From sequence record OR352948.1: a stretch of 64,000 nucleotides of DNA; one strand, given 5' to 3'. The notes below the pieces were generated by a model. That model did no database searches and had not been told where the DNA came from. It saw only the letters and a program-made list of their open reading frames with translations. This stretch comes from Escherichia phage AV118. Shown one piece after another: positions 42,258 to 42,713 of the stretch. Each line of letters begins with the position of its first letter. Positions within the stretch are counted from its first letter, which is position 1. The position numbers and the translations under genes are program-made.

Positions 42258-42713
42258 TTATTTTAGATCTTCGGCCCAATCTAGTTTTAAGGGTTCTTTG
42301 TATTCACGGTCGAGAATAACCGGAATAGCTACATCACCACTGAATGATAGTTGGCCAACGTTATATGATAACGTTATATGTGGAGTGTAGTCGTCGAAAT
42401 CATGAGTAGCACCTAAAGCTCGTGCATACTGATGACGACATCTAAGATATTCAGAATCAAGAACTAAAACCAGTACAGCGCCGTCGTCAGTTTTCCATAC
42501 CTCAAAGTGTCCTGATTCGGCAACAGAATAACTACCACTAGATGTAGTATATGGTATGTTTACACGTGAATAACAAATTGTTGAATGAAGCTTTTCACGT
42601 GGTACTGGATTAGGAATTCTTAATTTGCGCTGGAGGTCTTCCAGCGCATCAAGTGTTAATTCCGAAAATTTAGCTGCGACGTAGAGGCCTTGTGAAAAGT
42701 CCTCAAATTTCAT
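42258..42713 (-). CDS. 57B: Gene 57B homolog (Acb1-like 2H phosphoesterase, cyclic-oligonucleotide degrading)
   Basis: 151 aa at the T4 57B position; two H-x-[ST] motifs (HSTICY, HITLSY) typical of 2H phosphoesterases. Confidence 0.7.

Follow-up and report, generated by a model that had tools for sequence, protein, structure and literature searches.

Phages that infect hosts defended by cyclic-oligonucleotide immunity (CBASS) can carry genes that remove the immune signal, and the locus considered here raises the question of whether Escherichia phage AV118 codes for two such genes, and whether these are the counterparts of those in T4. We analyzed a 64,000-nucleotide stretch of AV118 DNA (sequence record OR352948.1), referred to below as the window, for which a preliminary description made from the letters alone had proposed an Acb1-like gene at the position of T4 57B and, from synteny only, an Acb2 candidate at the position of T4 vs.4. 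We consider it very probable that the window genes are intact acb1 and acb2, two independent counters to CBASS, as in T4, a reading that draws on sequence homology, conserved functional residues, purifying selection, gene order, and the fold of the Acb2 hairpin. What their products do, namely catalysis, the range of substrates, assembly into hexamers, and action against CBASS in vivo, we infer.

Genomic setting of the two genes

Published RB69-like phages (Mosigvirus) are 95-99% identical to the window DNA, and Escherichia phages AV115, AV109, and vB_EcoM_G2469 show 98-99% DNA identity around acb1 and acb2. RB69 itself (genus Mosigvirus, Straboviridae) is collinear with the initial 45 kb of the window at 81-99% identity, with a few insertions or replacements breaking the collinearity, and it shares 98.1% DNA identity with the segment of the window that contains the vs cluster. 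These similarities place the window within the genome of an RB69-like T-even phage (Mosigvirus). Two local gene orders are common to the RB69 and T4 annotations, the first being 3 - 1 - 57A - 57B - internal head proteins, and the second vs - vs.1 - regB - (vs.3 / ORF117c) - vs.4 - vs.5 - vs.6 - vs.7 - vs.8. The features of the window that bear on these are:

42258-42713, minus strand: acb1 (gene 57B), an ATG-started ORF of 151 aa, predicted by homology to code for a 2H phosphoesterase
42713-42943, minus strand: gene 57A, tail-fibre chaperone (PF17594 GP57, E=5.9e-23), directly upstream of acb1
42948-43682: gene 1, upstream of 57B, as is gene 3
27590-28048, minus strand: regB endoribonuclease (PF10715, E=6e-69), the synteny anchor of the vs cluster
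28110-28325, minus strand: vs.3-position ORF of 71 aa, the equivalent of RB69ORF117c (PHROG 2037, E=3.7e-29)
28325-28591, minus strand: acb2 (gene vs.4), an ATG-started ORF of 88 aa that begins MSIEDIKGYKPH and lies inside a longer, TTG-started mechanical ORF
28581-28805, minus strand: vs.5 homologue (PHROG 1986, E=9.6e-39, and RB69 annotation), directly upstream of acb2

The coordinates first proposed for the 151-aa ORF at the 57B position are exact, with 57A, 1, and 3 upstream and internal head proteins downstream, two of the latter being supported by Pfam and PHROG scans of the neighbours. The 88-aa ORF likewise sits where it had been placed, at the vs.4 position and second after regB, the order being regB, the vs.3-like ORF, and then the 88-aa ORF, as in T4. 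The vs.3-position ORF has 40% identity to T4 vs.3 over 65 aa, and is the shorter of the two (71 versus 92 aa). The only tRNA genes in the window, tRNA-Arg(TCT) at 40290-40366 and tRNA-Met(CAT) at 40467-40541, both on the minus strand, match the two tRNAs annotated in RB69; T4 has eight.

Gene 57B codes for an Acb1 homologue

The 151-aa protein matches the Pfam family 'Anti-CBASS protein Acb1' (PF23474) along the entire profile (positions 1-144 of 144; E=1.3e-58; 197.3 bits against a cut-off of 27), as well as the structurally solved Acb1 of Erwinia phage FBB1 (PDB 7T26; also 7T27) over residues 9-148 (E=1.1e-58), and T4 57B aligns with it at 85% identity and without gaps. The Acb1-like assignment had been drawn from two H-x-[ST] motifs, and exactly two such tripeptides are found, H43-S44-T45 (within HSTICY) and H112-I113-T114 (within HITLSY). 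By themselves these are weak evidence; the Pfam Acb1 match is far beyond chance.

The functional residues described for Acb1 (Hobbs et al. 2022; PMC9117128) are an HxT/HxT tetrad of H44, T46, H113, and T115, the stacking residues Y12, W74, F107, and W147, E141, which contacts the adenine N6, and a C-terminal lid. The catalytic motifs persist in the window protein, where the tetrad of T4 and FBB1 aligns to H43, T45, H112, and T114; Y12, W74, F107, E141, and W147 align to the identical residues Y11, W73, F106, E140, and W146; and the C-terminal lid is present. In an alignment of eight homologues that reaches down to 29% identity and includes proteins of Serratia, Acinetobacter, Aeromonas, Vibrio, and Klebsiella phages, the four catalytic residues, Y11, and E140 are invariant. 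The dN/dS of acb1 relative to T4 is 0.07 (Nei-Gojobori; synonymous sites are near saturation), a value that indicates strong purifying selection. A single-sequence AlphaFold2 model of Acb1 was unusable (pLDDT 37), and for this reason it is from the gap-poor alignment to the solved structure 7T26 (140 residues, E=1e-58) that we infer a 2H phosphoesterase fold.

The same fold raises the alternative that the 57B product is a LigT-type (2'-5' RNA ligase) RNA ligase or RNA-repair enzyme and not an anti-CBASS nuclease. The LigT and Acb1 families have the 2H fold and the HxT/S motifs in common, PHROG 755 is described as 'RNA ligase', and RefSeq gives that label to 57B of RB69, of T4, and of many relatives; the window protein also has a weak match to PF13563 (2_5_RNA_ligase2, E=0.013). 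However, that match is partial and at 15.9 bits falls below the cut-off of 27, as against 197 bits for Pfam Acb1, and the ligand-specific Y11, W73, F106, E140, and W146 are all kept together with the C-terminal lid. Moreover, the T4 protein, 85% identical, was found to be the cGAMP-degrading enzyme through activity-guided fractionation, and T4 lysate loses its cyclic-nucleotide cleavage activity when 57B is deleted (PMC9117128). We regard an RNA ligase as very improbable, in view of the sub-cut-off PF13563 match and the different demonstrated activity of the T4 orthologue, and the label appears to be an automated name that spread through annotations and reflects the shared 2H superfamily. We retain the identification of 57B as acb1.

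Gene vs.4 codes for an Acb2 homologue

The Acb2 call for the 88-aa ORF is now backed by homology and residue conservation in addition to synteny. Profile searches gave significant similarity to Acb2, with matches to PF24729 (Acb2_Tad1_hairpin; E=4.4e-18 and 65.7 bits, the cut-off being 27, over profile positions 1-58 of 58), to PHROG 717 (E=3.6e-28), the family by which Vs.4 homologues were defined (PMC10097602), and to PDB 7UQ2, the complex of T4 Vs.4 with cGAMP (E=1e-30). Sequence identity is 66% to T4 Vs.4 and 99% to RB69 vs.4.

In T4 Vs.4, cGAMP is contacted by Y8, H11, K23, R79, and F82, S74N is a loss-of-function allele, T12 is a helix cap, and the hexamer interface is made by L29, F33, A66, A73, and A77 (Jenson et al. 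2023; PMC10097602). All are identical in the window protein. The pocket residues (Y8, H11, K23, S74, R79, and F82 in T4) correspond to Y9, H12, K24, S74, R79, and F82, and are invariant among eight aligned homologues, which represent six T4-like phage genera plus one Phapecoctavirus; the interface residues correspond to L30, F34, A66, A73, and A77, of which F34 varies and the other four are invariant in the same alignment; and the helix cap corresponds to T13, which is not invariant. In its first and last thirds, which are conserved, acb2 has a dN/dS of 0.05-0.08 relative to T4. The protein had been described as helical, and in a single-sequence AlphaFold2 model it forms a two-helix hairpin (helices 16-47 and 54-82; pLDDT 81). 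A fold search with this model returned chains A and B of 7UQ2 as the sole significant PDB matches (E ~1e-5, probability 1.00), with chains of Acb2 from Pseudomonas phage PaMx33 among the next. We predict that the 88-aa protein is a hexameric sponge for cyclic dinucleotides.

The hairpin tip and the ligand range of Acb2

The divergence of the window Acb2 from that of T4 is limited to residues 38-65, at the tip of the hairpin, where identity falls to 18% and both site classes are saturated. The tip varies in sequence and in length in all eight T4-like homologues aligned, and because it is hypervariable throughout this alignment, its divergence is, as far as the comparison reaches, typical of the family and not special to AV118. 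Residues 38-65 are near the region that forms a trinucleotide pocket in PaMx33 Acb2, and for this reason the sequence does not allow a prediction of which ligands might be bound outside the dinucleotide pocket. This second pocket of the PaMx33 protein requires R67 and T74, and T4 Acb2, which has D61 and T68 at these positions, binds dinucleotides and not cA3 or cAAG (Cao et al. 2024; PMC10312549). The window residues that align to R67 and T74 are Q61 and Q68, so the Arg and Thr are not conserved, and since these counterparts are both Gln, we predict that the window Acb2 has no trinucleotide pocket and binds cyclic dinucleotides only, like T4 Acb2.

Certain members of the Acb2 family bind 3'cADPR and do not inhibit CBASS, and the Acb2_43 subgroup among these has additional beta-strands at both termini, which build the pocket for 3'cADPR (bioRxiv 10.1101/2025.08.24.671296). 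It could be argued from these proteins, and from the mere 18% identity of residues 38-65 to T4, that the vs.4 homologue has shifted in specificity, being unlike T4 Acb2 either a Thoeris 3'cADPR sponge of the Acb2_43 type or a protein with a trinucleotide pocket derived from the tip. However, the residues that contact cyclic dinucleotides in T4 are all identical in the window Acb2, its model contains no beta-strands (DSSP) of the kind from which Acb2_43 builds its pocket, and the Arg and Thr essential for cA3 in PaMx33 are replaced by Gln and Gln. Hypervariability of the tip in all eight T4-like homologues argues for low constraint and not for a new pocket. A shift in specificity is quite unlikely in our judgement, and a Thoeris sponge is disfavoured by the intact dinucleotide pocket and the absent extra strands.

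A further proposal is that the Mosigvirus-type tip (residues 38-65, with Q61 and Q68 for D61 and T68) is not neutral and alters either binding by the hexamer at the face of the threefold axis, for example of a second ligand class, or the detection of the sponge by host surveillance. If this were true, RB69-like phages would differ from T4 in their anti-defence or decoy-sensitivity profile (CBASS versus Panoptes). We give this proposal a small chance, and the evidence suggests that the divergent tip is without functional meaning.

Escherichia phage tuntematon (NC_052660, 132700-132969), a Phapecoctavirus (Stephanstirmvirinae), also codes for an Acb2 homologue, and the hairpin tip of that protein is T4-like. 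The occurrence of this homologue outside the T4-like family suggests that acb2 moved horizontally between unrelated coliphages.

Gene organization and maintenance

The TAA stop codon of 57A and the ATG of acb1 overlap by one base (TAATG; junction sequence ...GAAGAATAATGAAA), and this overlap suggests that the two genes are co-transcribed and translationally coupled; the overlap of the annotated T4 genes, in comparison, is four bases. At the vs cluster, the vs.5 homologue overlaps the start of acb2 by 11 nt, a Shine-Dalgarno-like element (GAGGA) lies upstream of the acb2 ATG, and the acb2 stop codon has one base (28325) in common with the ATG start of the vs.3-position ORF. Promoter and terminator scans around acb1 and acb2 gave counts not clearly above those of shuffled controls, and we therefore claim transcription units only as far as the layout of overlapping or abutting ORFs goes. 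For the same reason, the expression timing of both genes is assumed to be that of T4.

That promoter-like sites near acb1 and acb2 are not enriched over shuffles would also fit one or both genes being decaying remnants that have lost function or expression. Against this, neither ORF is truncated in comparison with T4 and RB69, they lie within tightly packed, overlapping arrays that resemble operons, and identical proteins are retained in more than 100 phage contigs. Strong purifying selection is indicated by a dN/dS of 0.07 in acb1 and of 0.05-0.08 in those segments of acb2 that are conserved. We find decay extremely improbable, pseudogenization being excluded by full length, low dN/dS, and wide conservation, and we treat both genes as intact.

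Other variable loci in the window

Several other stretches of the window differ from RB69. Three ORFs on the minus strand, at 1946-2836, 6698-7501, and 13650-14471 (296, 267, and 273 aa, respectively), occupy stretches without a DNA match to RB69; their sites are the gap from gene 45 to rpbA, the region that follows gene 47, and the interval between nrdD and gene 49. The N-termini of all three resemble '...Y.I(T/S)...PPYYIGS', and among them there is one sub-threshold match to GIY-YIG (E=0.004) and one NUMOD3 motif (5e-8). These are probably seg-like homing endonucleases, that is, lineage-specific mobile insertions. Between pin and nrdC, about 1.3 kb (15033-16309, minus strand) has no nucleotide match to RB69 and contains several small acidic ORFs of 51-161 aa. 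A segment of about 400 bp (25834-26245) is absent from RB69; at 25823-26238 and 26235-26615, both on the minus strand, are two 70-aa ORFs with a PF23895 phage zinc-binding domain (3.9e-29) and DUF7202 (1.6e-38), with the macro-domain ORF tk.4 (Macro, E=2.9e-4, slightly below the cut-off) following closely downstream.

Three small ORFs on the minus strand (41544-41819, 41869-42180, and 39078-39542) begin with MKT(F/Y)xEFI(S/A)E or MKSYAEFLTE, which resembles the capsid-targeting leader of T4 internal head proteins, and the first two match the internal-head-protein families PHROG 7673 and 2667. No nucleotide match to RB69 ipI was obtained for the ORF at the ipI position (41544-41819), which we therefore describe as an allelic replacement. 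T4 IPI* counters restriction, and by analogy this variable cassette adjoining acb1 may also serve anti-defence.

Predicted action against CBASS and Panoptes

By homology, Acb1 would be a metal-independent 2H phosphoesterase in which the two HxT motifs perform acid-base catalysis on a strained 3'-5' phosphodiester located 3' of an adenosine, and, as predicted from its T4 homologue, it would hydrolyze adenosine-containing cyclic di- and trinucleotides. Acb2, a small helical hairpin, would assemble by homology into a hexamer with three pockets at the dimer interfaces, each holding one cyclic dinucleotide through stacking by Tyr9 and Phe82, with His12, Lys24, Ser74, and Arg79 supplying salt bridges and hydrogen bonds; for T4 Vs.4 the Kd for 3'3'-cGAMP is about 30 nM. 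The window Acb2 would thus sequester the signal and not destroy it, and cyclic trinucleotides, which Acb2 is predicted not to bind, would be left to Acb1. RB69-like phages would in this way carry the two anti-CBASS tools of T4, one a nuclease that degrades the signal and the other a sponge that binds it, which should be useful for predicting host range on CBASS-carrying E. coli. In T4, binding of the decoy 2',3'-c-di-AMP by Acb2 sets off Panoptes (PMC12657218); because of this trigger, we predict that the window Acb2 would also bind the decoy and so expose the phage to detection by Panoptes, as happens with T4.

Distribution and annotation

Neither gene is new. The exact 151-aa sequence is found on 142 contigs and the exact 88-aa sequence on 172, with the UniRef names 'Anti-CBASS protein Acb1 n=14 Tax=Mosigvirus' and 'Acb2/Tad1 hairpin domain-containing protein n=16 Tax=Mosigvirus', respectively. 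Since identical proteins are already catalogued under the Acb1 and Acb2 names, both genes are known and no new biology is implied. The phage records with a tblastn match number 1,469 for Acb1 and 1,231 for Acb2. The lesson is one of annotation, as GenBank records mostly still say 'hypothetical protein' or, misleadingly, 'RNA ligase'. NCBIfam models match neither protein, but this library is aimed at bacterial and archaeal annotation and is therefore uninformative here. A literature search returned no paper whose main text joins RB69 with either Acb1 or Acb2; in the DarTG1 paper anti-CBASS appears only in the reference list, and RB69 was not found in the text of the supplements of Hobbs et al.

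Comparison with known systems

PaMx33 Acb2 (PDB 8H2J/8H2X; Huiting et al. 2023, Cao et al. 2024) is the more distant of the characterized sponges considered here. It shares with the window protein the Pfam family, the hairpin architecture, and the Tyr and Lys that hold the dinucleotide (Y11 and K26, window Y9 and K24). However, it is not detected by phmmer at E<=0.01 from the window Acb2, its Foldseek match has an E value of about 1, and its R67 and T74 are absent in the window protein, which probably does not bind the second ligand class (cA3/cAAG).

Similarity to the T4 proteins is much closer. T4 Acb1 (gp57B, NP_049750) and FBB1 Acb1 (PDB 7T26/7T27) are comparable in length (151 aa in the window versus 152 aa) and in position downstream of 57A, and the window protein shows no change in the HxT/HxT tetrad, in the four stacking aromatics, in the Glu that reads adenine, or in the C-terminal lid; of its 22 substitutions relative to T4 Acb1, none falls on a described functional residue. 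T4 Vs.4 (Acb2; NP_049728, PDB 7UQ2) and the window Acb2 are both 88 aa long, with the same place in the genome (regB, vs.3-like, vs.4, vs.5) and the same hairpin fold, and are 92% identical in the N-terminal 37 residues and 87% in the C-terminal 23. They differ at the tip, with 18% identity and a one-residue indel in residues 38-65, and T4 D61 and T68 are Q61 and Q68 in the window.

The vs.4 product of RB69 (AAP76020/NP_861808) is 99% identical to the window protein, with one conservative L/M difference, and the RB69 57B product (AAP76056/NP_861847) falls in the 90%-identity cluster of the window Acb1. The RB69 records, which are older than the discovery of the Acb1 and Acb2 functions, carry the labels 'conserved hypothetical' or 'RNA ligase', and the gene order around RB69 57B and vs.4 is identical to that of the window.
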